20,163 nt of DNA, from IMG/VR virus record IMGVR_UViG_2718218396_000005. One strand, written 5' to 3'. The DNA comes from a virus. Lineage: Duplodnaviria; Heunggongvirae; Uroviricota; Caudoviricetes. This document shows positions 1 through 14,886 of this stretch, one piece after another. The first letter of the stretch is position 1. The number at the start of each line of letters is the position of its first letter. Under the pieces are notes generated by a model that was given only the letters and a program-made list of their open reading frames with translations, was not told where the DNA came from and searched no databases. A program made the translations under genes and the position numbers.

Positions 1-199
1 ATCTACAAGTGCCTTTTTCTGTCAGCGGTTCTCCTTTCCAGCCAATGAGAACCGTCAGGCGCGCGCCCCGTGGCGGTAGCTGCAACTGACCATCTGCATC
101 ATCCAGCGTGATGGTGAGCTGGTCCGCCTCAAATCCCCGGTTGTCGGTCAGTGACAGGCTCATCAGGCGCTCTGCCACGCCTGACAGCGTTTTACCCTC
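1..199 (-). pseudogene. D: Tail protein D (P2 gpD / late control D family), distal part of a gene interrupted by IS629; runs off the left edge of the window
   Basis: Minus-strand translation read across the IS (1587->1510, then 196->1) gives MTDTTMQLLSQGTDHVKVPDFDILAE-GKTLSGRGRRLMSLSLTDNRGFEADQLTITLDDADGQLQLPPRGARLTVLIGWKGEPLTEKG. The SLTDxRGFEADQL.I.LDD.DG.LQLP.RGA...GWKG pattern is what I recall for gpD-family proteins. The frame is open to position 1. Confidence 0.6.
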
Positions 200-253
200 T
201 GAACCGCCCCGGGAATCCTGGAGACTAAACTCCCTGAGAAAGAGGTAAACAGG

Positions 254-580
254 ATGACTAAAAATACACGTTTTTCCCCCGAGGTCCGTCAACGGGCAGT
301 CCGTATGGTTCTGGAAAGTCAGGGCGAATATGACTCACAATGGGCGGCAATTTGTTCCATTGCCCCAAAGATTGGCTGTACACCAGAGACTCTGCGTGTG
401 TGGGTTCGTCAGCATGAGCGGGATACCGGGGGCGGTGATGGTGGACTCACCACCGCTGAACGTCAGCGTCTGAAAGAGCTGGAACGTGAAAATCGTGAAC
501 TGCGCCGCAGTAACGATATCCTTCGCCAGGCTTCCGCTTATTTTGCGAAGGCGGAGTTCGACCGCCTCTGGAAAAAATAA
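254..580 (+). CDS. IS629-like transposase OrfA (HTH / leucine-zipper DNA-binding subunit)
   Basis: 108-aa ORF from the track. GGAG-type RBS (AGAGG at 241-245) upstream. A6 run at 572-577 just before the stop is the likely -1 frameshift window for making the OrfAB fusion. Confidence 0.85.
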
Positions 581-1467
581 TGCCGCTGCTGGATAAGCTG
601 CGTGAGCAGTACGGGGTCGGACCGGTATGCAGTGAACTGCATATTGCCCCGTCAACGTATTACCACTGTCAGCAACAGCGACATCATCCGGATAAACGCA
701 GTGCCCGTGCGCAGCGCGATGACTGGCTGAAGAGAGAGATACAGCGCGTATACGATGAAAATCATCAGGTGTACGGTGTGCGTAAAGTCTGGCGCCAGTT
801 GTTACGCGAAGGTATCAGGGTGGCCAGATGTACAGTGGCGCGCCTCATGGCGGTTATGGGACTTGCCGGTGTTCTCCGGGGTAAAAAGGTCCGTACTACC
901 GTCAGCCGGAAAGCCGTTTCCGCAGGCGACCGCGTAAACCGTCAGTTCGTGGCAGAACGTCCTGACCAGCTGTGGGTGGCTGATTTTACTTACGTCAGCA
1001 CATGGCAGGGCTTCGTCTATGTGGCGTTCATCATTGATGTGTTTTCCGGATGTATCGTGGGGTGGCGAGTCTCATCGTCTATGGAAACGACATTCGTGCT
1101 GGATGCACTGGAGCAGGCGTTGTGGGCCCGTCGGCCGTCCGGCACAGTCCATCACAGTGATAAAGGTTCTCAGTATGTATCACTGGCCTATACGGAGCGA
1201 CTAAAAGAAGCAAAACTGCTGGCATCAACAGGGAGTACAGGTGACTCGTATGACAACGCGATGGCGGAGAGCATCAATGGTCTTTACAAAGCGGAGGTAA
1301 TACACCGTAAGAGCTGGAAAAACCGTGCAGAAGTGGAACTGGCCACACTCACGTGGGTGGACTGGTATAACAATCGACGATTGCTGGGAAGGCTGGGTCA
1401 TATCCCTCCGGCAGAAGCAGAAAAAGCTTATTATGCTTCCATCAGAAACGATGATCTGGCAGCCTGA
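580..1467 (+). CDS. IS629-like transposase OrfB (DDE integrase-type catalytic subunit)
   Basis: 295-aa ORF in the -1 frame relative to orfA, overlapping its stop (ATAATG). Contains the D...D...E region expected of an IS3-family catalytic core (..WVADFTYV.., ..HHSDKGSQY.., ..DNAMAESINGLYK..). Confidence 0.85.
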   Translation: MPLLDKLREQYGVGPVCSELHIAPSTYYHCQQQRHHPDKRSARAQRDDWLKREIQRVYDENHQVYGVRKVWRQLLREGIRVARCTVARLMAVMGLAGVLRGKKVRTTVSRKAVSAGDRVNRQFVAERPDQLWVADFTYVSTWQGFVYVAFIIDVFSGCIVGWRVSSSMETTFVLDALEQALWARRPSGTVHHSDKGSQYVSLAYTERLKEAKLLASTGSTGDSYDNAMAESINGLYKAEVIHRKSWKNRAEVELATLTWVDWYNNRRLLGRLGHIPPAEAEKAYYASIRNDDLAA

Positions 1468-1509
1468 GTTCACAGATAAAACACTCTCCAGGAAAACCGG
1501 GGCGGTTCA

Positions 1510-1587
1510 CTCCGCGAGAATATCAAAATCCGGCACTTTCACGTGGTCTGTGCCCTGACTGAGCAATTGCATGGTGGTGTCGGTCAT
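1510..1587 (-). pseudogene. D: Tail protein D, 5' fragment (start codon to IS629 insertion point)
   Basis: ATG at 1587-1585 on the minus strand, preceded by GGGAGG (reverse complement of 1594-1599) at 6-nt spacing. The frame runs without a stop into the IS right end at 1509 and resumes in the same frame at 196 once one copy of the CTC duplication is removed. Confidence 0.6.
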
Positions 1588-1745
1588 CTGTTCCCTCCCT
1601 GTGCGGCATGGTCGCATGTGCGTGCGGAGGGGGTTACTGCTTTTTGTTGTCGCCGTGGCGGGATGAACGGCGCAGGGGTGAGATTACGCGAGTGGTGGGT
1701 GATGATTGTTGCCGAATCATTTAACGGATACAAGGGGCTGAAGCT

Positions 1746-2930
1746 ATGAGTGAAACTCGTTTTCATGGTGCCCGTGTTACGGAAAGTACCGACCTGGTAA
1801 CAGCGATTAATGATGTTGATTCCAGTGTTATCGGTATCGTGGCAACGGCAGATGATGCGGACGCGGAGCTGTTCCCGCTGAACAAGCCCACACTGCTGAC
1901 CCGCGTCAATGACGTGCTGGGAAAATGCGGGACTACGGGGACGCTTTATCGTGCGCTTAAGGCTATCGCAGACCAGGTGAGCACAAAAGTGATCGTCGTT
2001 CGCGTGGCTGAACACAAAGAAGAAGGCGGTAAGACGCAGGATCAACTGGTTATCGGTGGTTCTGAATCTGACGGCAGCTATACGGGGATGTATGCGCTGC
2101 TTGTTGCAGAGCAGGATGAAAGCATCGGATACCGTCCGCGTATTCTGGCCGCGCCGGAGCTGGACACGGAGGCGGTAACAAAATCCCTGTGCGTGATTGC
2201 GGGTAAACTGCGCGCGTTTGTGTATGCCACATGTCATGGTTGTAACACGATGGCTGAGGCGATTACCTACCGCCAGAAATTCAACGAACGTGAGGTGATG
2301 CTCTTATGGCCTGACTTCATCGCCTACAACCTGAAAAGTGGCAAAAACGAAACGTTCCCCGCGCCTGCTTATGCGTGCGGCCTTCGTGCGTACATTGACC
2401 ATGAGCAGGGCTGGCACAAATCGCTGTCCAACGTTCCGGTTAAAAATGTGCTTGGGATGTCGAGGCATGTGTTCTGGTCGTTGCAGGCCGAAGACAGTGA
2501 TGCCAACAGCCTCAACAACAAAGAAATCACGACCATTATTCGTCGCAACGGGTTCCGCTTCTGGGGCAACCGCACACCGGAAACGAACGCCTACATCTTT
2601 GAGGTGTATACCCGAACCGCACAGGTGCTGGCTGATTCAATTGCGGAAGCGCAGTTTGAAACCATCGACAGTCCACTGACACCTGCGAACGTGAAGGATG
2701 TTATCAGTGCCATCAGGGCAAAACTGGATTCACTGGTTACTGCCGGGAAACTGATTGGCGCGGAGTGCTGGTATGACATCGAGGATAACAGCACCACGAA
2801 TTTACGTCAGGGGCGTGTGCGTATTCGCTACAAATATACGCCCGTTCCTCCGCTGGAAGACATGGAGCTTTACCAGTCGTTTACTGATGAATTCTTTGGT
2901 CCCGCATTTGCGGTGCTGGGAGGTGCCTGA
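1746..2930 (+). CDS. FI: Contractile tail sheath protein (P2 gpFI family)
   Basis: 394-aa ORF with AAGGGG RBS. Shares blocks I recall from P2 FI (ADDADAE.FPLNKP, LRAF.Y, WPDF, GLRA.ID.EQGWHK.LSNV, IRR.GFRFWGNRT, YTRTAQV.AD, YTPVPPLE). Stop overlaps the FII start (TGATG). Confidence 0.9.
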   Translation: MSETRFHGARVTESTDLVTAINDVDSSVIGIVATADDADAELFPLNKPTLLTRVNDVLGKCGTTGTLYRALKAIADQVSTKVIVVRVAEHKEEGGKTQDQLVIGGSESDGSYTGMYALLVAEQDESIGYRPRILAAPELDTEAVTKSLCVIAGKLRAFVYATCHGCNTMAEAITYRQKFNEREVMLLWPDFIAYNLKSGKNETFPAPAYACGLRAYIDHEQGWHKSLSNVPVKNVLGMSRHVFWSLQAEDSDANSLNNKEITTIIRRNGFRFWGNRTPETNAYIFEVYTRTAQVLADSIAEAQFETIDSPLTPANVKDVISAIRAKLDSLVTAGKLIGAECWYDIEDNSTTNLRQGRVRIRYKYTPVPPLEDMELYQSFTDEFFGPAFAVLGGA

Positions 2931-3442
2931 TGGCTGTACCAAAACATCTTCGCTTTTTTACGCTGTTTGTGGATGGTGAAAACGAAGTGGGTAAGGTGAC
3001 GTCCGTCACCCTGCCTAAACTGACGCGCAAAACCGACAGCTACCGGGGTGGTGGCATGATGGGTGCGGTAAGTATTGACCTCGGCCTGGACGACTCCGCG
3101 CTTGATGCGAGCTTTGTCATGGGGGGCGCAGTTCGTGAGCTGTTCCTGAAGTATGGCGGCACGATTGACGGCACGCTACTGCGTTTTGCGGGGGAATACT
3201 ACACCGATGATGAAAGCGACCTGTATGAAGTCGAAATGCGCGGACGTGTGACGGAAATTGATATGGGGGAAGCCAAACAGGGCGAAGCCACATCACACAC
3301 TTACGCCATTAAAAACACCTACTACAAGCTGAGTGTTAACGATCGCCCGTTGTGGGAGATTGACCTGCTGAACTTCATTTACCGGAAGGACGGCAAGGAC
3401 ATTGTGCCCGATCGCATCCGTTCCGCGCTTGGGCTTGGCTGA
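2930..3442 (+). CDS. FII: Tail tube protein (P2 gpFII family)
   Basis: 170-aa ORF translationally coupled to FI. Size and position (sheath then tube) fit contractile-tail operon order. Confidence 0.85.
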   Translation: MAVPKHLRFFTLFVDGENEVGKVTSVTLPKLTRKTDSYRGGGMMGAVSIDLGLDDSALDASFVMGGAVRELFLKYGGTIDGTLLRFAGEYYTDDESDLYEVEMRGRVTEIDMGEAKQGEATSHTYAIKNTYYKLSVNDRPLWEIDLLNFIYRKDGKDIVPDRIRSALGLG

Positions 3443-3496
3443 TAAGTAATATGCAGGCGGCGCAGTGCGTCGCCTCTGACTGAAAGGAGTTTCCTG

Positions 3497-3862
3497 ATGA
3501 AAGAGACGAAAAACATCGATACCGAAAACACGGTAGTTACTGACACTGTGAAAGAAACCAGTGAGCGTGGTGTAAAACTTACCCAACCAATTGAGCGAGG
3601 CGGCGAAAAAATCACGTATGTGGAGATCACCGGGGCTATTGAGCAGGCTGGATCTCTGCGAGATTTGTCGCTGTCTGATGTGCTGAATCTGAAAGCGGAA
3701 TCCATGTTTACGCTGCTGTCACGCGTGACATCACCGCGACTGGATGAAGTGACGATCAAAAAAATGGCATCCCGTGACTTTATTCAGTTATGTGTGGTTG
3801 CCGTAAATTTTTTGAGCGGTGCGGACTCTGGCGGGAAGAACGAACAGGCGACGGAAGCCTGA
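3497..3862 (+). CDS. E: Tail assembly chaperone E (zero-frame product)
   Basis: 121-aa ORF with AAGGAG RBS at 3484-3489. Lies between the tube and tape measure genes, as in P2 (E, E+E') and lambda (G, GT). Confidence 0.8.
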   Translation: MKETKNIDTENTVVTDTVKETSERGVKLTQPIERGGEKITYVEITGAIEQAGSLRDLSLSDVLNLKAESMFTLLSRVTSPRLDEVTIKKMASRDFIQLCVVAVNFLSGADSGGKNEQATEA

Positions 3863-4026
3863 TCACGGTTGTGTGCTTTGAGCACATAGAAGACTTTGTG
3901 GCAGATATTGCCGTTATTTTTAACTGGTCGCCCGCCGAAATCTTCATGATGACGCCCGGCGAAGTGGTTAGCTGGCGTGAGCGGGCGGCACTTCGCAGCG
4001 GGAATGCAGACAATGAAGACTCTTGA
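3497..4026 (+). CDS. Tail assembly chaperone E+E' made by programmed -1 ribosomal frameshift at 3808-3814
   Basis: Zero-frame codons AAT TTT TTG place the heptamer T TTT TTG at 3808-3814. After a -1 slip the reading continues ERCGLWREERTGDGSLITVVCFEHIEDFVADIAVIFNWSPAEIFMMTPGEVVSWRERAALRSGNADNEDS to the stop at 4024-4026, which is the 78-aa track ORF 3790..4026. Confidence 0.75.
3808..3814 (+). promoter_or_regulatory. Slippery heptamer T_TTT_TTG for the E/E' -1 frameshift
   Basis: X XXY YYZ motif in the E zero frame, with the -1 frame open downstream for 70 codons. Confidence 0.7.
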
Positions 4027-6103
4027 TATCCGGGTCGCTTTCAGCGCCGTTGACAGGCTGACCCGACCTGCCGAAAACGCACGCCGCCTGATGGGGCAGT
4101 TTGGTGACTCCATCCAGCGAACGCAGGGGGCGATCAAAAATCTCGAGCGTCAGGCGCGATCATTTGAGCGCGCCCGCGACGCTGTCAGTAAAGCGGATGC
4201 TGGCATCGTGAAAGCACGACGCCAGCTTAACGCCCTTAATCAGTTACAACGCACGGGTACAGTGCTCAGCGAAAAACAACAAAAGCTGATGCAGCAGTTA
4301 AGCACCCGGCTTGAACGCCTGAATGAATCGCGCACACGGGAAATTCAGAAAATGAGGGAACTTGGCGGAGAGCTGAAACGCCACGGCATTTCCCTGACAG
4401 GCAGCGATAACACCATTCAGCAGGCCATCAGACGCACCGAACAATACAACAACCAGCTTGAACGCGAACGGCAGGCGCTTGCGCGTGTAACGCAGGCGCG
4501 TGAGCGGTATTCGCACGCGCAGGAAACCGCGGGAAAACTGAAAACAGGTGGTGCGCTGGCAATTGGTGCGGCAGCGGCGGGCGGCTATGCTGCCGGGCGT
4601 TTTTTGCAGCCTGCGATCGGGTTCGGCAAAGAGATGTCCCGCGTTCAGGCACTGACGCGAATCGACAAAAACAGCCCGCAGTTTAAGGCGCTGCGTGAGC
4701 AGGCGTTAAAACTTGCTGAAACACAGTTTACTGCGAGTGATGCCGCCAGTGGGCAGAGCTTTCTGGCAATGGCTGGTTTTACTCCGCAGGCCATTCAGGC
4801 CGCATTGCCCGGTGTTCTTAATATGGCGCTGGCAGGTGGCGTCGAACTCGGCGAGACGGCTGATATAGGCTCCAATATCCTCACACAGTTCAACCTGACA
4901 GCCGATCAAATGGACCGGGTGGGCGATACGCTGACAGCAGCATTTACCCGGACCAATACTGATTTACGCGCGCTGGGCGAAACCATGAAGTATACCGGTC
5001 CGGTTGCCGCAAAACTTGGTATCAGTCTTGAAGAAGCGGCGGCCATGGCCGGGATGCTTGCCAATAATGGTCTTCGCGGAAGCGATGCTGGCACGGCCAT
5101 GCGCGCAAGTCTGTCCCGCCTTGCATCACCGCCAAAAGCTGCGGCTGATGCACTGAAAGAGCTGGGGGTGTCAGTTGCTGAGGCCAGAGGCAAAATGCGC
5201 CCGATGGAGGATGTGCTGCTTGATCTCTATAAGGCGACACAAAAATACGGACAGGTGGACCAGGTCTCCTTCTTCAAGGACATCGCCGGAGAAGAGGCGT
5301 TCGTTGGTTTGCAGACGCTTGTTGCGGCGGCTGGTTCAGGAGAGCTGCAAAAACTGACCAGAGAATTGCAGGGGGCAAGGGGAGAGGCCGATCGCGTCGC
5401 AAAAGTAATGGCTGATAATCTTGATGGGGACCTGAAAAATCTCGACAGCGCATGGGAAGGTCTTCGTATTCGCATCAGTGATCTGGTTGACGGTCCGCTG
5501 CGTTCTGTCACGCAGTGGCTCACGCGGGTGCTTGAAAAAATCACCTCGCTGGCGCAGGCCCATCCGGTACTGACGCGCCAGCTACTGATAGCAGGCGGTG
5601 CGTTGCTGGCAATGACTGCAACGATTGGCTCGTTGTCGCTGGTTATTGGGGTGCTTTACGGGAAGCTGGCCACCCTGCGTCTTGGTTTTGACATTCTTAC
5701 CCGGTCAATGAATGTCGTCAGGGTGTTACCTGCGCTATGGGGAATGGTGACGGGTTCCGTTTCTTTACTGGGAGGCGTTATCGGGGCGTTGTTCAGTCCG
5801 GTTGGTCTTATCGTGGCTGCGCTTGCCGGAGCTGCCGTTCTTATCTGGAAATACTGGGATCCTATCAGGGCTTTCTTTGCCGGGGTGTTCAGCGGGATTA
5901 TGGAAAGGCTGACCCCGTTGCGCGACACCTTTGAACGGTTTGGCCCTGTTTTTGACGTAATCGGAAGCGGTTCAGCCAGGTGTTTAACTGGTTTAAATCG
6001 CTGCTGTCACCGATGGAGTCCAGCAAGGAAACGCTGGATAAATGTACCAGTGCTGGCGAGGTATTCGGTAACGTTCTTGGTGGTGCGTTACAGCTTGTTC
6101 TGA
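4013..6103 (+). CDS. T: Tail tape measure protein (P2 gpT family), N-terminal and central part, ending prematurely after an apparent frameshift near 5956-5980
   Basis: Long ORF straight after E/E'. Coiled-coil-rich N-terminal third, alanine/glycine-rich central part and hydrophobic segments are typical of tape measure proteins. ATG 4013 (MKTLDIRV) is preferred over the track's GTG 3977 because it overlaps the E' end. The last 45 codons (RCLTGLNRCCHRWSP...) look like out-of-frame junk. Confidence 0.75.
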   Translation: MKTLDIRVAFSAVDRLTRPAENARRLMGQFGDSIQRTQGAIKNLERQARSFERARDAVSKADAGIVKARRQLNALNQLQRTGTVLSEKQQKLMQQLSTRLERLNESRTREIQKMRELGGELKRHGISLTGSDNTIQQAIRRTEQYNNQLERERQALARVTQARERYSHAQETAGKLKTGGALAIGAAAAGGYAAGRFLQPAIGFGKEMSRVQALTRIDKNSPQFKALREQALKLAETQFTASDAASGQSFLAMAGFTPQAIQAALPGVLNMALAGGVELGETADIGSNILTQFNLTADQMDRVGDTLTAAFTRTNTDLRALGETMKYTGPVAAKLGISLEEAAAMAGMLANNGLRGSDAGTAMRASLSRLASPPKAAADALKELGVSVAEARGKMRPMEDVLLDLYKATQKYGQVDQVSFFKDIAGEEAFVGLQTLVAAAGSGELQKLTRELQGARGEADRVAKVMADNLDGDLKNLDSAWEGLRIRISDLVDGPLRSVTQWLTRVLEKITSLAQAHPVLTRQLLIAGGALLAMTATIGSLSLVIGVLYGKLATLRLGFDILTRSMNVVRVLPALWGMVTGSVSLLGGVIGALFSPVGLIVAALAGAAVLIWKYWDPIRAFFAGVFSGIMERLTPLRDTFERFGPVFDVIGSGSARCLTGLNRCCHRWSPARKRWINVPVLARYSVTFLVVRYSLF

Positions 6104-6816
6104 CGCCTGCAAAAATGTTGCTGGATACGCTGGCGTGGATACTTGAAAAACTCGGTGTGCTTCCGGATGAAGCGGAAAGGGCGCGCAAGAAAATCGAAGA
6201 CGCACAACGTGCGGCCATTCTTCAGGACAAGGTTGCTCTGTTTCAGGGAGACATTGCGAAAATCAATCCGCCGAAGTCTGCGGGAAATAGCAATGGCACC
6301 GGAGATGATAAACCCAAAGACAACAAACCTCTCACAGACAGCAATACCGGCACGCTACGCAGACTCAGCAAAATTGCTGATAACACAGGTAAGCTGGTTG
6401 ATGAGACAAAAAAACGCATTGGCCCCGGCGATATTGTCTTTAAGAACCTGCCCCGCGCACTTGCTGTTCGTGGGGAGTGGCAGGAGCGGAAGATTGCGCA
6501 GGTCAGTAAGCCTGCCCCCGCAATTAATATCACACCCGTGGTCCCGGCTCCGCTGCCTCCGGCGCTGGTCCCTGTTGTTGCGGCCAGCTCCCGCCCGGTG
6601 GTGGAGGCCATACGATCGCCAGTGGCATCAGTTCCTGCAACTTCCCGTAACCGGGAGCCTGTTGCCTCCGGATTTGGCGGTGAAATTCATGTTCATCTGC
6701 ATAACGTTGTTACGCAGAATCCCCGCGAACTGGCGAAACTGGTCGGCGAAATGGTCAGGGCAGAAATGGAACGGCGCGCCCGTGCCAGGCGTGGCAGTTT
6801 TTACGATAAAGATTGA
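5956..6816 (+). CDS. T: Tail tape measure protein, C-terminal part in the +1 frame (continuation of gene T after the frameshift)
   Basis: This frame opens after a stop at 5953-5955 and reads ..SQVFNWFKSLLSPMESSKETL... to a stop at 6814-6816 immediately before the U gene. The track starts this ORF at GTG 5980. Confidence 0.65.
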   Translation, partial: RNRKRFSQVFNWFKSLLSPMESSKETLDKCTSAGEVFGNVLGGALQLVLTPAKMLLDTLAWILEKLGVLPDEAERARKKIEDAQRAAILQDKVALFQGDIAKINPPKSAGNSNGTGDDKPKDNKPLTDSNTGTLRRLSKIADNTGKLVDETKKRIGPGDIVFKNLPRALAVRGEWQERKIAQVSKPAPAINITPVVPAPLPPALVPVVAASSRPVVEAIRSPVASVPATSRNREPVASGFGGEIHVHLHNVVTQNPRELAKLVGEMVRAEMERRARARRGSFYDKD

Positions 6817-6828
6817 GGAGTCATGGCC

Positions 6829-7317
6829 ATGATGATGATCTACGGCATGTTTGTTTTTGAGCTGCGCACGTTGCCGCATCAGCAGTTACAGCAAAACAAA
6901 AGCTGGCGACATGTGAAAAATGAACGCGTTAACCGTTCAGCAAGCTGGCAGTATATCGGTGCAGGTGATGATCGCATCGTTCTTTCTGGTGTTCTTTATC
7001 CTGAGATTACTGGTGGCGAAGTGTCGCTGTCGTTGTTGACCACGCAGGCATATACAGGACGTCCTTGGCCTTTGATTGATGGCGTCGGGCAGATTTACGG
7101 CATGTATGTCCTGACCGGAACGAATACGACCCGCTCCGAGTTTGATCGCTACGGTAAGGCGAAAAAGATAGAATTTTCACTGACTCTTGAACGCTGTGAT
7201 GAGGATTTGCGGGAGCGCCTGCAATCCTCATCGTTCAGCGATATGCTGTCCGGCTTCAAAGATAAGGTGACATCATCCCTTAATAGCGCGGCCAGCTCAG
7301 TTAAGGGGCTGCTCTGA
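6829..7317 (+). CDS. U: Tail protein U (P2 gpU family)
   Basis: ORF 6823..7317 in the track. ATG 6829 is preferred because GAGGAG at 6815-6820 is 8 nt upstream. N-terminus MMMIYGMFVFELRTLPHQQLQ resembles what I recall of gpU, and it directly follows the tape measure gene. Confidence 0.8.
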   Translation: MMMIYGMFVFELRTLPHQQLQQNKSWRHVKNERVNRSASWQYIGAGDDRIVLSGVLYPEITGGEVSLSLLTTQAYTGRPWPLIDGVGQIYGMYVLTGTNTTRSEFDRYGKAKKIEFSLTLERCDEDLRERLQSSSFSDMLSGFKDKVTSSLNSAASSVKGLL

Positions 7318-7473
7318 TTTAACGTATGTCGCCAATTTCCTGATGAAGGTGACTGGCGACTTGCTGTTGTATGTCCTTCTCAGAAAATTGTTTTTGAATA
7401 ACAAATAACAGGATTTTATAATCTCTTAACCTTATAACATGTGTGGTCTGAAATAATAATTAAGGAGATTATC

Positions 7474-8046
7474 GTGCTATCTTACTTAATGGCAATTCAC
7501 TTTGTTTTATTTGGAAACTCTACTAATTTAAAAAACTTCTGGAAACATGAAGTAATTCGGCGGAAACGTATGGATATCTGGAGGCTTTTAAGAGAGAAAA
7601 AACAGCGTAACCGGAATTTCCTTTTCTGGTGGCGGTTGGCTAACGAAATGTATATTAATGGTAATAAATTACATAAGAAAGCAGCCAAAAAGTTAAACAG
7701 TAAAATAATTAACAAGTTTGGTTGTGAAATAGGATTGGGCGCAAATATTGGAAAAGGGTTGACAATTCCCCATCATGCTGGAATTGTTGTTCATTTTGCT
7801 GTTGATGCGGGTGAAAATCTGGTATTACGACAGAATACTACCATTGGACAGATAGATGGTGATATGCCTAGTTCAAGAGTAAAAATTGGTAGTAACGTTG
7901 ATATCGGAGCTAATTGTTGCATCATTGGATTATCACGTAAAATTGGGGATAATGTAAAAATAGGTGCAATGTCTTTTATAAATAAAGATATACCATCAAA
8001 CTGCACATATATAACTAAAAAGAGTGGTGTTGTATTGTATAAATAG
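7474..8046 (+). CDS. Hexapeptide-repeat (left-handed beta-helix) acyltransferase, serine O-acetyltransferase-like; low-GC cargo gene
   Basis: Strong RBS TAAGGAG at 7461-7467 with GTG 7474 at 6 nt (ATG 7489 is an alternative; the track's GTG 7441 would put the RBS inside the gene). Hexapeptide repeats IGLGANIGKGLTI / HHAGIVVHF / IGSNVDIGANCCIIG / IGDNVKIGAMSFI, and an N-terminal helical segment resembling CysE/WcaB-type acetyltransferases. Visibly AT-rich relative to the flanking tail genes. Confidence 0.75.
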   Translation: MLSYLMAIHFVLFGNSTNLKNFWKHEVIRRKRMDIWRLLREKKQRNRNFLFWWRLANEMYINGNKLHKKAAKKLNSKIINKFGCEIGLGANIGKGLTIPHHAGIVVHFAVDAGENLVLRQNTTIGQIDGDMPSSRVKIGSNVDIGANCCIIGLSRKIGDNVKIGAMSFINKDIPSNCTYITKKSGVVLYK

Positions 8047-8055
8047 AGTACATAA

Positions 8056-8090
8056 AGCCATCGATATTTCTGTCGATGGCTTTTTCTTTT
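8056..8090. terminator. Rho-independent terminator between the convergent acetyltransferase and tfa genes
   Basis: Perfect 8-bp stem GCCATCGA (8057-8064) / TCGATGGC (8073-8080) with an 8-nt loop, followed by TTTTTCTTTT (8081-8090). It starts 10 nt after the acetyltransferase stop and abuts the tfa stop codon. Confidence 0.65.
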
Positions 8091-8622
8091 TATTGTGGGG
8101 CGACTGGCCACTCAACATCCGCTGCTACTGTTGTATCAACACGATTCAACAATACCCGATATGTCTTCCATGCAGCCAGTAACGATGCCTCTTCCTCCGT
8201 CGCAATATCCAAATCTACGGCATCCTGAAGTGGCGCAATATGCTCACTGGCTACCTGCATCAGGCTGTTTTTTGTTTCTTCTGCCTCCCGTACCCGAAAC
8301 AGTTTTTCTGCTTCTGCATCTTTCGCCCAGGATGTGCCGTTCCACTTCTGACACTCTCCATCCGGCGACAACCAGGTAACATTTTCCGGTAACGGACCGA
8401 GTTCAGAAATAAATAACGCGTCGCCGGAAGCCACGTCATAAACCGTTTTACCCCGATGATCTTCAACGAGATGCCACGATGCCTCATTACTGTTGAAAAC
8501 AGCCACGAAGCCAGCCGGAATATCTGGCGGTGCAATATCGGTACTGTTTGCTGGCAGACCTGTATGAGGCGGAATGTATGCGTCACCTTCACCAATAAAT
8601 TCATTAGTTCCGGCCAGCAGAT
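8090..8622 (-). pseudogene. tfa: Tail fibre assembly protein (Tfa / P2 gpG family), 5' end removed by the IS629 copy at 8623
   Basis: Track ORF 8090..8506 ([57 protein letters not shown]...). The same frame stays open upstream to the IS boundary, reading [39 protein letters not shown] before the GTG. This matches my memory of E. coli Tfa proteins, which have about 15 more residues at the N-terminus. Confidence 0.7.
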
Positions 8623-9679
8623 TGAACCGCCCCGGGAATCCTGGAGACTAAACTCCCTGAGAAAGAGGTAAACAGGATGACTAAAAATACACGTTTTTCC
8701 CCCGAGGTCCGTCAACGGGCAGTCCGTATGGTTCTGGAAAGTCAGGGCGAATATGACTCACAATGGGCGGCAATTCGTTCCATTGCCCCAAAGATTGGCT
8801 GTACACCAGAGACTCTGCGTGTGTGGGTTCGTCAGCATGAGCGGGATACCGGGGGCGGTGATGGTGGACTCACCACCGCTGAACGTCAGCGTCTGAAAGA
8901 GCTGGAACGTGAAAATCGTGAACTGCGCCGCAGTAACGATATCCTTCGCCAGGCTTCCGCTTATTTTGCGAAGGCGGAGTTCGACCGCCTCTGGAAAAAA
9001 TAATGCCGCTGCTGGATAAGCTGCGTGAGCAGTACGGGGTCGGACCGGTATGCAGTGAACTGCATATTGCCCCGTCAACGTATTACCACTGTCAGCAACA
9101 GCGACATCATCCGGATAAACGCAGTGCCCGTGCGCAGCGCGATGACTGGCTGAAGAGAGAGATACAGCGCGTATACGATGAAAATCATCAGGTGTACGGT
9201 GTGCGTAAAGTCTGGCGCCAGTTGTTACGCGAAGGTATCAGGGTGGCCAGATGTACAGTGGCGCGCCTCATGGCGGTTATGGGACTTGCCGGTGTTCTCC
9301 GGGGTAAAAAGGTCCGTACTACCGTCAGCCGGAAAGCCGTTTCCGCAGGCGACCGCGTAAACCGTCAGTTCGTGGCAGAACGTCCTGACCAGCTGTGGGT
9401 GGCTGATTTTACTTACGTCAGCACATGGCAGGGCTTCGTCTATGTGGCGTTCATCATTGATGTGTTTTCCGGATGTATCGTGGGGTGGCGAGTCTCATCG
9501 TCTATGGAAACGACATTCGTGCTGGATGCACTGGAGCAGGCGTTGTGGGCCCGTCGGCCGTCCGGCACAGTCCATCACAGTGATAAAGGTTCTCAGTATG
9601 TATCACTGGCCTATACGGAGCGACTAAAAGAAGCAAAACTGCTGGCATCAACAGGGAGTACAGGTGACTCGTATGACAA
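8623..9679 (+). mobile_element. IS629-like element, second copy, truncated at the 3' end (first 1057 of 1310 bp); no right inverted repeat and no target duplication
   Basis: Colinear with copy 1 from the left end TGAACCGCCCCGG (8623) through position 9679, with one mismatch seen in the translation (copy 1 T353 vs copy 2 C8776; OrfA Cys vs Arg). From 9680 the sequence is unrelated and AT-rich. Confidence 0.8.
8677..9003 (+). CDS. IS629-like transposase OrfA (copy 2)
   Basis: 108-aa ORF identical to copy 1 OrfA except C->R at residue 34. Confidence 0.8.
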
Positions 9680-9692
9680 TGTATTTTATTAG
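9003..9692 (+). pseudogene. IS629-like transposase OrfB, truncated (about 225 of 295 codons); the ORF reads through the deletion junction
   Basis: Identical to copy 1 OrfB through ..STGDSYDN, then 3 junction-derived codons (VFY) and a stop. It lacks the C-terminal part including the E of the DDE region, so this copy cannot supply its own catalytic subunit. Confidence 0.8.
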
Positions 9693-9711
9693 TTCACATA
9701 CAATTATCAGA

Positions 9712-10026
9712 TTATTCTGGGAATAAGGTCTGAATATTCTTTTTTATTTTATAAAAATTGCATTCAACTCCGCTAGGCTGATTAGCCTGGTATGTTTCCT
9801 TGATGCTAACGGTATTGAAGGGGAGGTTGTCCTCTGGCCATTCGGCCATCCAGTAGGCAAATGCTGGGTTGCGCTTTATGAGTGCTAGCCCAGCCAGAAA
9901 GGCCGCGCGTTGCGCGCGGCTGCGTTCGGAGGCTGGCAGGCTATCGAGGTAATTGCACGCCTCCTGTTCACTCTTGACGGCGGCGGGCTTCAGATAGAAA
10001 CTTATCCGTCTGGTTGGTGTCGTCAT
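9712..10026 (-). CDS. parR: ParR-like ribbon-helix-helix centromere-binding protein (type II partition adaptor)
   Basis: 104-aa ORF just downstream of parM. N-terminal region ISFYLKPAAVKSEQEACNYLDSLPASERSRAQRAAFLAGLAL parallels R1 ParR as I recall it (IAFKLNPDV.....DTLDSIPQGERSRLNRAALTAGLAL). It ends soon after a ..LFPE motif, so it is shorter than R1 ParR. Confidence 0.7.
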   Translation of the reverse strand: MTTPTRRISFYLKPAAVKSEQEACNYLDSLPASERSRAQRAAFLAGLALIKRNPAFAYWMAEWPEDNLPFNTVSIKETYQANQPSGVECNFYKIKKNIQTLFPE

Positions 10027-10030
10027 TGGT

Positions 10031-10990
10031 TTACTCCTTGTTCATTGCGTACAACCCATTAACCAGAGCAAACTGTGGCACCCCGTCCGCGATGAAAGTC
10101 GCATTAACTCCGCAGGCTTCGCGGATAGCGGTTGCCACAATCTCCGCCCCGCCACCGACAACCATCACCCGCCCGTAACCCGAAAAAACCGCCAGCGCGC
10201 GGATCACGCGTTGTTTCAGTGTTTCTTCCTTTTCACGAATAACCGCCATCAGGCTGGCGTAATGCGCGTCATTGTGGATGTGCTGGCGCAGCCAGGCTTC
10301 ATCATGGCGATGTTCGATAATGGTATTGGCGATGTGGTGACTGGTGCGCATACCGTTAGTGGCCATCACCGACAGTACGGCATCGGCCATCAGAGAAACG
10401 CCTACGTGTGGATCGCAAAACACCTGGCTGATACCTGCCAGTTGCCCCTGAACCTTTGCCACATCCAGCGTGGTTCCGCCCAAATCCACAATCAGCAGGG
10501 ATTCAAACGGACTCATGTCAGCCAGTGCCTTAAAGCCAGCAGGAATGGATTCAGGCATAACCCGTACGTTACGGATAGTGAATGCTTCGCCGTTCTGGTA
10601 CTCCACCGGGCGCATGACGTTCGCTTTTTTGCGGTTGATGTTGGCCATGTCCGGCTGTGCGTTTGTATCGAAATACTCGCTCAGTGGCAGGGTGACAACC
10701 ACATCCACTTCCTGTGGTGTGATGCCTGATTTGACCAGCGCGTGATGAATGGCAATTACATTCACATCGCTGTACTGGTATTGCGTGTCGGTCGTCTGGA
10801 CAAAGCGATCGCTGACCGGATCAAAACCATAGCGCACGCCATCAAGCATGTAGTTCGCGGGCTGCGTGCCACCGAATGGCGCAGACCATTCCGACTTGAA
10901 GCTGTTCGGGCTGATGGCGTTGCGGCGTTCGCCGTTCTCAGTCCATGCCAGCTTGATGTTGGTGGAGCCGTCGTCGATACAAATTTTCAT
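10031..10990 (-). CDS. parM: ParM/StbA-like actin-fold ATPase (type II plasmid partition motor)
   Basis: 319-aa ORF. Blocks IDDGSTNIKL, ISPNSFK, YSDVNV..HHAL, MPESIPAG, DLGGTTLD, GVSL, GGGAE and LVNGLY line up along the whole length with R1 ParM as I recall it. Confidence 0.8.
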   Translation of the reverse strand: MKICIDDGSTNIKLAWTENGERRNAISPNSFKSEWSAPFGGTQPANYMLDGVRYGFDPVSDRFVQTTDTQYQYSDVNVIAIHHALVKSGITPQEVDVVVTLPLSEYFDTNAQPDMANINRKKANVMRPVEYQNGEAFTIRNVRVMPESIPAGFKALADMSPFESLLIVDLGGTTLDVAKVQGQLAGISQVFCDPHVGVSLMADAVLSVMATNGMRTSHHIANTIIEHRHDEAWLRQHIHNDAHYASLMAVIREKEETLKQRVIRALAVFSGYGRVMVVGGGAEIVATAIREACGVNATFIADGVPQFALVNGLYAMNKE

Positions 10991-14333: not shown

Positions 14334-14564
14334 TTAATGGAGTTTGTTTTGCTGCTGGATGAGCTGTTGAAACTCGTGCAGATCATCCGCCAGATAGCTG
14401 AAAACAGAGGCGGAATAAATGTTTGATAGTGCGTGGCTGCGCTCATGCAGCATATTGATGTGCATGATTTGCGCGACGCGTGATGCGCGGGAAAGTCTGC
14501 GGTTGATTTCAGTCTGGATGTGACGACGCTCCGCGATAGCGCGGTGCTGTTTGCGGTCTGCCAT
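14334..14564 (-). CDS. Hypothetical small basic protein (76 aa)
   Basis: ORF in the track with an AAGAGG-type RBS (reverse complement of about 14572-14577) 7 nt upstream of the ATG. Basic and helical in character. Confidence 0.5.
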   Translation of the reverse strand: MADRKQHRAIAERRHIQTEINRRLSRASRVAQIMHINMLHERSHALSNIYSASVFSYLADDLHEFQQLIQQQNKLH

Positions 14565-14744
14565 GGTGTGGCCTCTTTGCTCGGTGATAGAAATAACTCA
14601 CCATCCAGAGTTGAGAATCTCGGGGTGGCGAGACGTACAGGGTTCTCAACACCGGAGAGCAAAGAATCCGGCCCGACCGAAGTCGGCCCCGTACGCCCCG
14701 CCATAATTCTGACGCGAAAAAGACGTGGCAATACAGTACGCACA

Positions 14745-14765
14745 AAAAAACCGCTAGCGCGGTTA
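14745..14765 (-). terminator. Rho-independent terminator inside the early operon (minus strand)
   Basis: On the minus strand, stem AACCGC / GCGGTT with loop GCTA followed by a run of T (plus strand A run at 14745-14751). It lies about 120 nt downstream of the 99-aa gene stop. Confidence 0.45.
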
Positions 14766-14886
14766 TGCGCTTTGCTCTGTATCGGGTTGAGAATCCCGGC
14801 ACCCGTTTTATGAGGTGCAGCGGAAATGTAACCTGACCGATTGCGGCATGGCAAGCGGTTTTTTTGTGTGTGCATGTTCTGGTTTC

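Follow-up and report, generated by a model that had tools for sequence, protein, structure and literature searches.

A reversed FI–U tail block in a defective O157:H7 prophage follows the gene order of P88-like phages

Introduction

The canonical order of the tail genes in P2 is H-G-FI-FII-E-T-U-D-ogr, all on one strand. In both P2 (NC_001895) and Fels-2 (NC_010463) the genes FI to U are co-stranded with H-tfa and with D-ogr, and U overlaps D. Fels-2, which carries an invertase gene immediately upstream of FI, was considered as a possible sharer of the reversed order described below and was rejected, its gene order being P2-type. In the Ogr/Delta-dependent late promoters of P2, a partial dyad (TGT-N12-ACA type) has its centre some 55 nt upstream of where transcription begins.

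P88 (Peduoviridae, Xuanwuvirus; KP063541 / NC_026014, of which the GenBank copy was used for comparisons) is a plaque-forming phage with a contractile tail (PMC5285337). It is annotated with H and tfa on the plus strand, tfa' and H' on the minus strand, an invertase gene on the plus strand, U to FI on the minus strand and D on the plus strand. PhiSM, from Citrobacter, is likewise an active phage (PMC6456863). Escherichia coli O157 Sakai contains a sole P2-like prophage, Sp13, which is without most morphogenetic genes and has a P4 epsilon-like gene (PMC2669165).

The window analysed here is the whole 20,163-nt stretch of IMG/VR record IMGVR_UViG_2718218396_000005, from strain 7784. An initial annotation had proposed that its FI–U tail operon was inverted in place between D and tfa. 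We conclude, with a probability of about 0.93, that the window is a defective O157:H7 P2-like prophage of P88-like descent, and that the reversed FI–U block is the native order of that lineage, derived from a single ancestral inversion.

Results and Discussion

Tail genes and decay of the prophage

The plus strand carries FI, FII, E/E', T and U (1746–7317), and the minus strand the start of D (1587) and tfa (8620–8090). These identities and strands, already assigned in the initial annotation, are borne out by Pfam, tblastx, RefSeq and translation. The P2 counterparts of FI, FII, E/E', T, U and D were all matched by tblastx, as in a P2-like contractile-tail late operon, and Pfam matches were obtained for FI, FII, T and U in the window and for D in P88.

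The tail sheath gene FI (1746–2930, plus strand) matches Phage_sheath_1, Gp18_domIII_N and Phage_sheath_1C, and its product is 45% identical to P2 FI. It is followed on the same strand by the tail tube gene FII (2930–3442; Phage_tube, E=1e-47) and the tail assembly chaperone pair E/E' (3497–4026), made up of E (3497–3862) and the E' frame (3871–4026). A Pfam search with the E protein gave no match, its identity comes from tblastx to P2 E/E' and from RefSeq, where the pair is labelled 'tail protein' and 'GpE family phage tail protein'. The tape measure gene T (3977–6816, plus strand; PhageMin_Tail) is a pseudogene. Compared with P88 it has lost 1 bp near 5971, seen as a blastn gap and as tblastn matches to P88 T in two reading frames, and is marked 'frameshifted' in RefSeq. 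The final gene of the flipped block is the tail protein gene U (6823–7317, plus strand; Phage_P2_GpU, E=1.5e-38).

D, encoding the tail hub / late control protein gpD, is present as a fragment of about 92 codons on the minus strand, cut by an IS30 just outside the left edge of the window. Its reading frame begins at 1587 (ATG 1587–1585) with MTDTTMQLLSQGTDHVKVPDFDILAE, the first 26 codons (1510–1587) being colinear with P88 D, and resumes in 199–1 with codons ~27–92, which are 99% identical to P88 33600–33408; the identity to the N-terminus of P88 gpD is 97–99%. RefSeq describes the gene as 'phage late control D family protein, incomplete', with IS30 adjacent. The two parts are separated by a complete IS629/IS1203-type element (200–1509, plus strand) with the marks of the IS3 family: terminal inverted repeats at 200–224 and 1485–1509, orfA and orfB, an ALIL frameshift pseudoknot at 535–651 and a 3-bp target duplication, CTC (197–199 and 1510–1512). 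This junction was found in one of 5,426 genomes, that of strain 7784, and 1,313 bp at its position are absent from other O157 genomes.

At the other end, homology to P88 stops at 7323, just past U. A hexapeptide cargo gene (7474–8046, plus strand; GC about 0.40), with a weak Hexapep match and annotated as a serine O-acetyltransferase in RefSeq, adjoins tfa. It sits where P88 has tfa'-H'-invertase, and the order U-acetyltransferase-tfa-H recurs in intact prophages of about 36 kb. In one P2-type locus (L145) the acetyltransferase gene is convergent with H/tfa. Between the convergent stops of the acetyltransferase gene and tfa, the top terminator-like match is a hairpin at 8054–8083, with a 13-bp stem and A and T runs at its flanks, which is probably a two-way terminator. 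The FI–U transcript, together with the cargo gene, would meet the H-tfa transcript head-on at this point.

The lambda-type tail fibre assembly gene tfa (8090–8620, minus strand; Caudo_TAP, E=5e-40) is missing its first 16 codons compared with intact relatives of 193 amino acids, these having been lost to a second, 3'-truncated IS629 (8623–9679, plus strand). This copy differs from the first by one mismatch across 1,057 nt, after which identity collapses, and has the same orientation. It marks a deletion of the H, baseplate, lysis and head genes, corresponding to approximately 10.1–24.9 kb of P88; the P88 alignment picks up again at 9881. The limits drawn for the inversion in the initial annotation, 1510 and 8622, coincide with the inward-facing ends of the two IS629 copies. 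The damage to this copy thus comprises a D truncated by IS30 and interrupted by IS629, a frameshifted T, a 5'-truncated tfa and the IS629-associated deletion, and its tail module is non-functional.

The prophage is probably the element named Sp13 in strain Sakai (Sp13/CP-933T), to which it was matched by the published description. The window matches 265 O157-type genomes, and its 'derepression protein' gene (14334–14564, RefSeq) parallels the P4 epsilon-like gene of Sp13. The difference from Sp13 is the one additional IS629 in D of strain 7784.

Gene order in P2-like and P88-like phages

The window shares FI, FII, E/E', T, U, D, ogr, tfa, A and int with P2 and Fels-2. In tblastx against P2, the reference alignment proposed in the initial annotation, D, tfa, A and int share one relative orientation and FI–U alone is reversed. 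Unlike in P2 and Fels-2, the PF-FI...U unit is turned, with FI and D pointing away from each other and U and tfa towards each other. The canonical P2 order is therefore absent from the window, which instead has that of the P88-like lineage: ogr-D, then FI-FII-E-T-U, then invertase or cargo gene followed by tfa-H, with FI divergent from D.

Positions 1510–7323 align with P88 33410–27594 as a single colinear block of 5,818 nt at 94% identity, covering the start of D, the spacer and FI to U. One-piece matches were also found in five further deposited phages: 500465-2, PhiR44_2, P884B11, Chuche and PhiSM. In these phages, as in P88, the divergent arrangement of D and FI is native. P88 and the window also share the early region (A, parM/stbB, and the C4 RNA with the derepression gene) at 85–96% identity; over all shared segments the identity is 85–99%, with about half of the P88 genome absent from the remnant. 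P88 is complete and infectious, whereas the window is without about 15 kb (head, lysis, baseplate and H), has tfa-acetyltransferase in place of tfa-tfa'-H'-invertase and carries the IS629 and IS30 damage. Relative to P88 the window differs by deletions and IS damage only, and the ancestor of its prophage is a P88-like (Xuanwuvirus-type) peduovirus.

The proposed in-place inversion accordingly holds relative to the order of P2, 186 and Fels-2. It fails as an event at this locus, because P88 is colinear with the window across the divergent D/FI junction. The initial annotation had itself named a native divergent D/FI order in P2-like reference genomes as an observation that would refute it, and P88 and the five other phages show that order. 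The size of about 6.5 kb given to it also needs correction: the flipped block is approximately 5.7 kb (1588–7323). The acetyltransferase gene falls outside the part that is colinear with P88. The separation of tfa from FI, which had been presented as a consequence of the inversion, is real but not peculiar to the window, intact relatives show it likewise.

The two arrangements have a consistent distribution. D on the minus strand with FI on the plus strand was found in all 78 IMG/VR loci with a detectable D, and the intact prophages of about 36 kb have D minus, FI to U plus, acetyltransferase plus, tfa minus and H minus. We surveyed other species with one genome per species. All 23 of the prophages with FI identities of 58–97% have ogr and D on the minus strand, FI to U on the plus strand and H on the minus strand, and the flipped order spans at least 12 genera, down to 58% FI identity. 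The 50 loci with FI identities of 51% or less that reach D all have the P2 order, with H, tfa, FI to U, D and ogr on one strand. The orientation of FI–U relative to D split the two groups without exception in the sample. The D/FI spacer is present in 1,054 of 5,426 complete E. coli genomes (about one in five). Searches of the literature on Xuanwuvirus, on CP-933T and on inversion in P2-like phages found no description of the flipped gene order.

Origin of the reversed block

These comparisons of gene order indicate that the flip, of about 5.7 kb, is old and fixed and defines the lineage. They point to one in-place inversion, in an ancestor, of exactly PF-FI-FII-E/E'-T-U, including the promoter, whose result has been inherited since. 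Throughout the lineage PF-FI...U natively runs on the opposite strand from both of its neighbours, H-tfa and D-ogr.

The block might instead have turned recently within the O157 prophage, cutting the FI operon off from D and tfa; IS elements, an invertase or short inverted homology would have mediated this. The reversal of the block relative to P2 and the IS629 copies at both ends of 1510–8622 would fit such an event, but we consider it highly improbable. The two IS629 copies are direct rather than inverted repeats, the first is unique to strain 7784, and the D/FI and U/acetyltransferase/tfa junctions occur free of IS elements in intact prophages and isolated phages; an IS629-mediated inversion was rejected on these grounds. 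The longest exact inverted match between 1588–1745 and 7318–8089 is 7 nt, the average in shuffled sequences being 7.6, and a repeat search (seed 12) combined with an exact-match scan against shuffles found no inverted repeats beyond chance at the breakpoints of the window or of P88. The initial annotation was thus right that long inverted repeats are lacking there, as it was that the window contains no invertase gene or homologue. That the flipped order persists in at least 12 genera, with FI identity as low as 58%, also argues against a recent origin. Misassembly, or the collapse of a mixed population to one orientation, is suggested by nothing beyond the order being unusual relative to P2, and there is almost no chance that either accounts for the data. 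At least 80% of the window lies in one place in 265 independently assembled complete genomes, which excludes misassembly. The spacer recurs in more than a thousand genomes, and the alternative, P2-type junction, with the 3' end of U joined to the 5' end of D on one strand, was found in none of the 1,412 complete E. coli genomes carrying the genes.

A programmed phase switch, with FI–U as the invertible segment of a Gin/Pin-type invertase beside U in P88-like phages, was also considered. The invertase gene of P88 abuts the stop codon of U, and one IMG/VR locus (L080) has a true local rearrangement between two invertase copies. That rearrangement splits T, however, and so represents damage rather than a switch. 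Orientation was not polymorphic in the 78 and 23 loci or the 1,412 genomes, and the branch containing the window is entirely without invertase. The orientation of the invertase relative to H is the same in Fels-2 and in P88-type phages, so the invertase is not part of the flipped block; it is known to act in switching the H/tfa tail fibres. None of the marks of a Gin/Hin/Cin/Pin-type invertible segment (an invertase, inverted crossover sites, both orientations among assembled relatives) was found, and a switch of this kind is very unlikely. The inherited ancestral inversion remains our reading of the locus. The FI–U order is already visible in reference phage genomes, and the finding is ordinary because the flip is the inherited normal order of the common P88 group.

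The D/FI spacer

The 158-bp spacer between D and FI (1588–1745), which is native to the lineage, contains an Ogr-type dyad, GTTGT-N12-A(T)GAAC, at 1646–1668. The strain 7784 sequence has an additional T at 1664 within the dyad, a rare insertion. In an alignment of 23 divergent spacers the TTTTTGTTGTC block is nearly invariant and GTTGT is invariant. Conserved -10-like blocks flank the dyad, each some 44 nt from its centre, the D-side block being poor in the P88 subgroup. The P/O spacer of P88 has the same motif, GTTCT-N12-ACAACAAAAG.

As in P2, FI is preceded by an Ogr-type dyad at a distance of about 80 nt. The distance from the FI ATG is 78–88 nt in P88-type loci and 78–82 nt in P2-type loci, and the annotated pF site of P2 is 82 nt upstream of FI. 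An Ogr-type activator site (GTTGT-N12-NNAAC) has stayed with the flipped block, at the canonical spacing from FI. A strict TGT-N12-ACA scan of the spacer found nothing; the annotated sites of P2 also fail this pattern. The looser dyad GTTGT-N12-ACAAC fits but is weakly specific genome-wide, with 22 sites in P88 at a score of at least 8/10 against 13.5 in shuffles, and the case for a promoter therefore depends on how the dyad is conserved and where it lies.

The dyad would drive divergent late promoters, D-ogr one way and FI–U the other. Use of the site by D is probable from its geometry and conservation, because the D ATG is about 70 nt, and the FI ATG about 89 nt, from the dyad centre. The initial annotation had D uncoupled from the late operon. 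D does stand structurally apart from the FI operon, but a site placed to serve both directions gives no reason to expect lost late control. The ogr homologue of P88 is an unannotated reading frame directly after D; P88 gp53 was considered as Ogr and rejected. Whether the late regulon of P2 was reorganised in the ancestral inversion, so that one lineage-fixed D/FI dyad drives both FI–U and D-ogr and ogr controls itself, is in our judgement an evenly balanced question. A search of the literature on P2-like phages found no description of a two-way D/FI architecture of this kind. If true, it would sit in a lineage covering at least 12 other enterobacterial genera.

Comparison with known systems

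The locus itself matters little, being an inherited order in a well-known defective O157:H7 element. Its wider meaning is that P2 is the wrong synteny reference for some P2-like prophages; P88 fits here. The closest parallel to the D/FI spacer is the pair of divergent P and O promoters of P2, where a central shared dyad lies between outward-facing genes at centre-to-ATG distances of 79 and 95 nt, compared with about 70 and 89 nt in the window. The P2 site serves P-Q and O-N-M, and the spacer site would, by analogy, serve D-ogr and FI–U. The D/FI spacer would thus add to P2 P/O a second apparent case of an Ogr-dependent late promoter region that is shared by both directions.

Orientation of the tail genes

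The tail genes FI (sheath), FII (tube), E/E' (chaperone pair), T (tape measure) and U occupy window 1746-7317 and are all encoded on the plus strand. Pfam gives the assignments of FI, FII, T and U; those of E/E' are based on tblastx to phage P2 together with the RefSeq annotation. In tblastx against P2, D (tail hub), tfa (tail fibre assembly), A and int share a single orientation and FI through U have the opposite one. This bears out the initial annotation, which had the FI-U block on the strand opposite to D and tfa and proposed that it had been inverted in place.

Megablast of 1510-8622 against GenBank phages covers 1510-7323 in a single piece in P88, 500465-2, PhiR44_2, P884B11, Chuche and Citrobacter PhiSM. 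In local blastn P88 33410-27594 matches 1510-7323 as one block of 5,818 nt at 94% identity, and the alignment to P88 D carries on in window 7-199. The annotated order in P88 is H+, tfa+, tfa'-, H'-, invertase+, U-, T-, E'-, E-, FII-, FI-, D+. P88 forms plaques, with a burst size of about 65 and a tailed virion in electron microscopy (PMC5285337), and PhiSM is an active temperate phage (PMC6456863). Because P88 and the five other phages match 1510-7323 in single pieces, the flip is not local. Reference P2-like genomes with a native divergent D/FI order, which the initial annotation itself regarded as evidence against its reading, are thus found among these matches. An inversion at this locus, whether local, recent or artefactual, is refuted; the inverted-block reading is right only for the evolution of the lineage, which is set apart from P2 by an inversion. 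Positions 1510 and 8622 mark the inner edges of two IS629 copies and are not breakpoints. There is nothing unusual in the reversed FI-U orientation, which reference genomes already show, and the arrangement of D and FI to U is native to the P88-like lineage.

A real local rearrangement is present in another P88-like prophage (IMGVR_UViG_2654587728_000014, 4864-10683). Here T is split at P88 ~29580 and the portion comprising the invertase, U and the 3' part of T is reversed, and between the split parts lie additional tail-fibre genes and a further invertase (74% identical).

Extent of the divergent arrangement

Among the 80 closest IMG/VR loci (FI identity of at least 97%), D lies upstream of FI on the opposite strand in all 78 with a detectable D. 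Of the 78, 33 have an invertase beyond U and 20 have an acetyltransferase. D is full length in several loci on contigs of ~36 kb, seemingly intact prophages, and their order is D-, FI..U+, serine O-acetyltransferase-like gene+, tfa-, H-. Since these loci carry the D/FI and the U/acetyltransferase/tfa junctions alike, both junctions are native to these seemingly intact prophages.

A scan of one genome per species was seeded with the aligned FI proteins of the window and P2; seven of its loci end before D. The order ogr- D-, FI+..U+, (invertase or tfa)- H- is found in 23/23 loci with FI identity of 58-97%, in Salmonella, Citrobacter, Edwardsiella, Enterobacter, Kosakonia, Symbiopectobacterium, Mixta, Erwinia, Pantoea, Trabulsiella, Izhakiella, Klebsiella and Pectobacterium. 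Of the loci with FI identity of 51% or less, all 50 that extend to D have the P2 order. So does Fels-2, in which an invertase lies immediately upstream of FI. A synthetic P2-type query, in which the U 3' end is followed by the D 5' end on the same strand, found the joined junction in none of 1,412 E. coli genomes having one or both halves. These IMG/VR, cross-species, Fels-2 and junction surveys mark the flip as an old and fixed inversion that defines the lineage, in which a unit of ~5.7 kb running from the FI late promoter to U was turned round. At the U end, the inversion stops between the U stop codon and the tfa-side variable locus, with its invertase or cargo gene; at the FI end, it stops between the promoter of FI and the start codon of D.

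Enterobacterial P2-like prophages also occur on two contigs (L086 and L138) of the Firmicute-labelled assembly Vagococcus sp. WN89Y, and L086 has an FI with 97% identity to that of the window; they are probably contamination or a mixed culture.

Prophage setting and decay

E. coli strain 7784 (cattle, UK) has the window in its chromosome at 100% identity. There are also 265 complete genomes nearly identical to the window, and those listed are O157:H7 or unserotyped isolates from cattle, beef and human. In the RefSeq record the window is flanked by a Gly-Cys-Leu tRNA cluster and IS30 on one side and by yecA on the other. Sakai Sp13 is described as the sole P2-like prophage of O157, without most morphogenetic genes and with a P4 epsilon-like gene, in an account that does not mention gene order (PMC2669165). 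By description, the window element fits Sp13.

D starts on the minus strand with an ATG at 1587, as initially annotated, and its frame resumes in 199-1; only ~92 codons remain, with IS30 truncating the gene outside the window and IS629 interrupting it. This IS629-type element (200-1509) is complete: between its inverted ends it carries orfA/orfB and a frameshift pseudoknot, and CTC is duplicated at the target. Its insertion in D is found only in strain 7784, one of 5,426 complete E. coli genomes. The minus-strand tfa, of lambda type (8620-8090), is likewise truncated. Compared with intact 193-aa relatives, its first 16 codons (MAFRMSEQPRTIKIYN) are missing, lost when the second IS629 inserted (window 8570-8622), so the RefSeq TTG start at 8620 is not the native one. 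T (3977-6816) has a 1-bp deletion near 5971 relative to P88, giving a pseudogene in two reading frames. An IS629-associated deletion has removed the equivalent of ~P88 10.1-24.9 kb, including H, baseplate, lysis and head genes. The second IS629 (8623-9679) is 3'-truncated. The two copies are in direct orientation, flank the whole tail block and differ by one base over 1,057 nt; recombination between them would delete 8.4 kb.

To the right of the second IS629, the early region on the minus strand includes stbB, parM and a 940-aa replication endonuclease, and the repressor side and integrase are on the plus strand. The parM and stbB-like genes (9712-10990, minus), beside the replication endonuclease, are partition genes of plasmid type, and P88 keeps them too. 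This conservation hints that phages of the lineage may pass through a stage of plasmid-like maintenance or segregation.

The tfa-side variable locus and RNA matches

A low-GC (~0.40) hexapeptide acetyltransferase gene (7474-8046, plus) fills the tfa-side variable locus, where P88 has an invertase cassette; other prophages have acetyltransferase versions ~98-100% and ~35% identical in the same slot. The positional counterpart in P2 is the Z/fun locus. A strong hairpin (8054-8083) between the convergent stop codons is likely to be a two-way terminator. The Rfam family IS009 matches 8127-8325 (minus, 191 bits) within tfa, and this appears to be conserved coding sequence captured by the model, with no separate RNA gene.

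Rfam also identifies a C4 antisense RNA (14621-14708) and isrK (14744-14818), both minus, just upstream of a gene for a 'derepression protein' (14334-14564). The three resemble a P1/P4-style anti-repressor module under antisense control, which may be related to the reported mitomycin induction of Sp13.

The D/FI spacer

Alignment of the D/FI spacers of 23 diverged genomes shows an invariant GTTGT in a nearly invariant block, TTTTTGTTGTC, followed 12 nt on by A(G/C)A(A/C)C. Conserved -10-like blocks lie ~44 nt each side of the centre of this dyad, GATTAT toward FI and TGAAAT on the D strand. In 20/23 P88-type loci the best dyad precedes the FI ATG by 78-88 nt, and in 20 of the P2-type loci by 78-82 nt; the annotated pF activator site of P2 is 82 nt upstream of FI. 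The conserved dyad at a fixed distance from FI in both arrangement types shows that the flipped block moved together with its own late-promoter site. A RefSeq 68-aa 'hypothetical protein' (1543-1749, plus) spans this spacer and is probably not a real gene, because the D start and the conserved dyad both fall within it. The window has an extra T at 1664, in the second half-site, which only five records share; no others reach 99% identity over the 60-mer at this site. The insertion is absent from P88, the 78 IMG/VR relatives and most O157 genomes, and either decay of the late promoter or a sequencing difference could account for it.

An ogr homologue, unannotated in P88 (KP063541), is present at 34476-34634 directly downstream of D (41% identity to P2 Ogr, E=5e-11). 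We lean modestly towards a dyad that works in the opposite direction as well, for D-ogr. GTTCT-N12-ACAACAAAAG also occurs in the divergent terminase/scaffold spacer of P88. Across the genome of P88 the dyad pattern by itself has low specificity, so the argument for two-way use is drawn from conservation and geometry. The mildly new point here is that a late promoter in the D/FI spacer probably works both ways; its model is the shared activator site of P2 that serves both the P and O operons.
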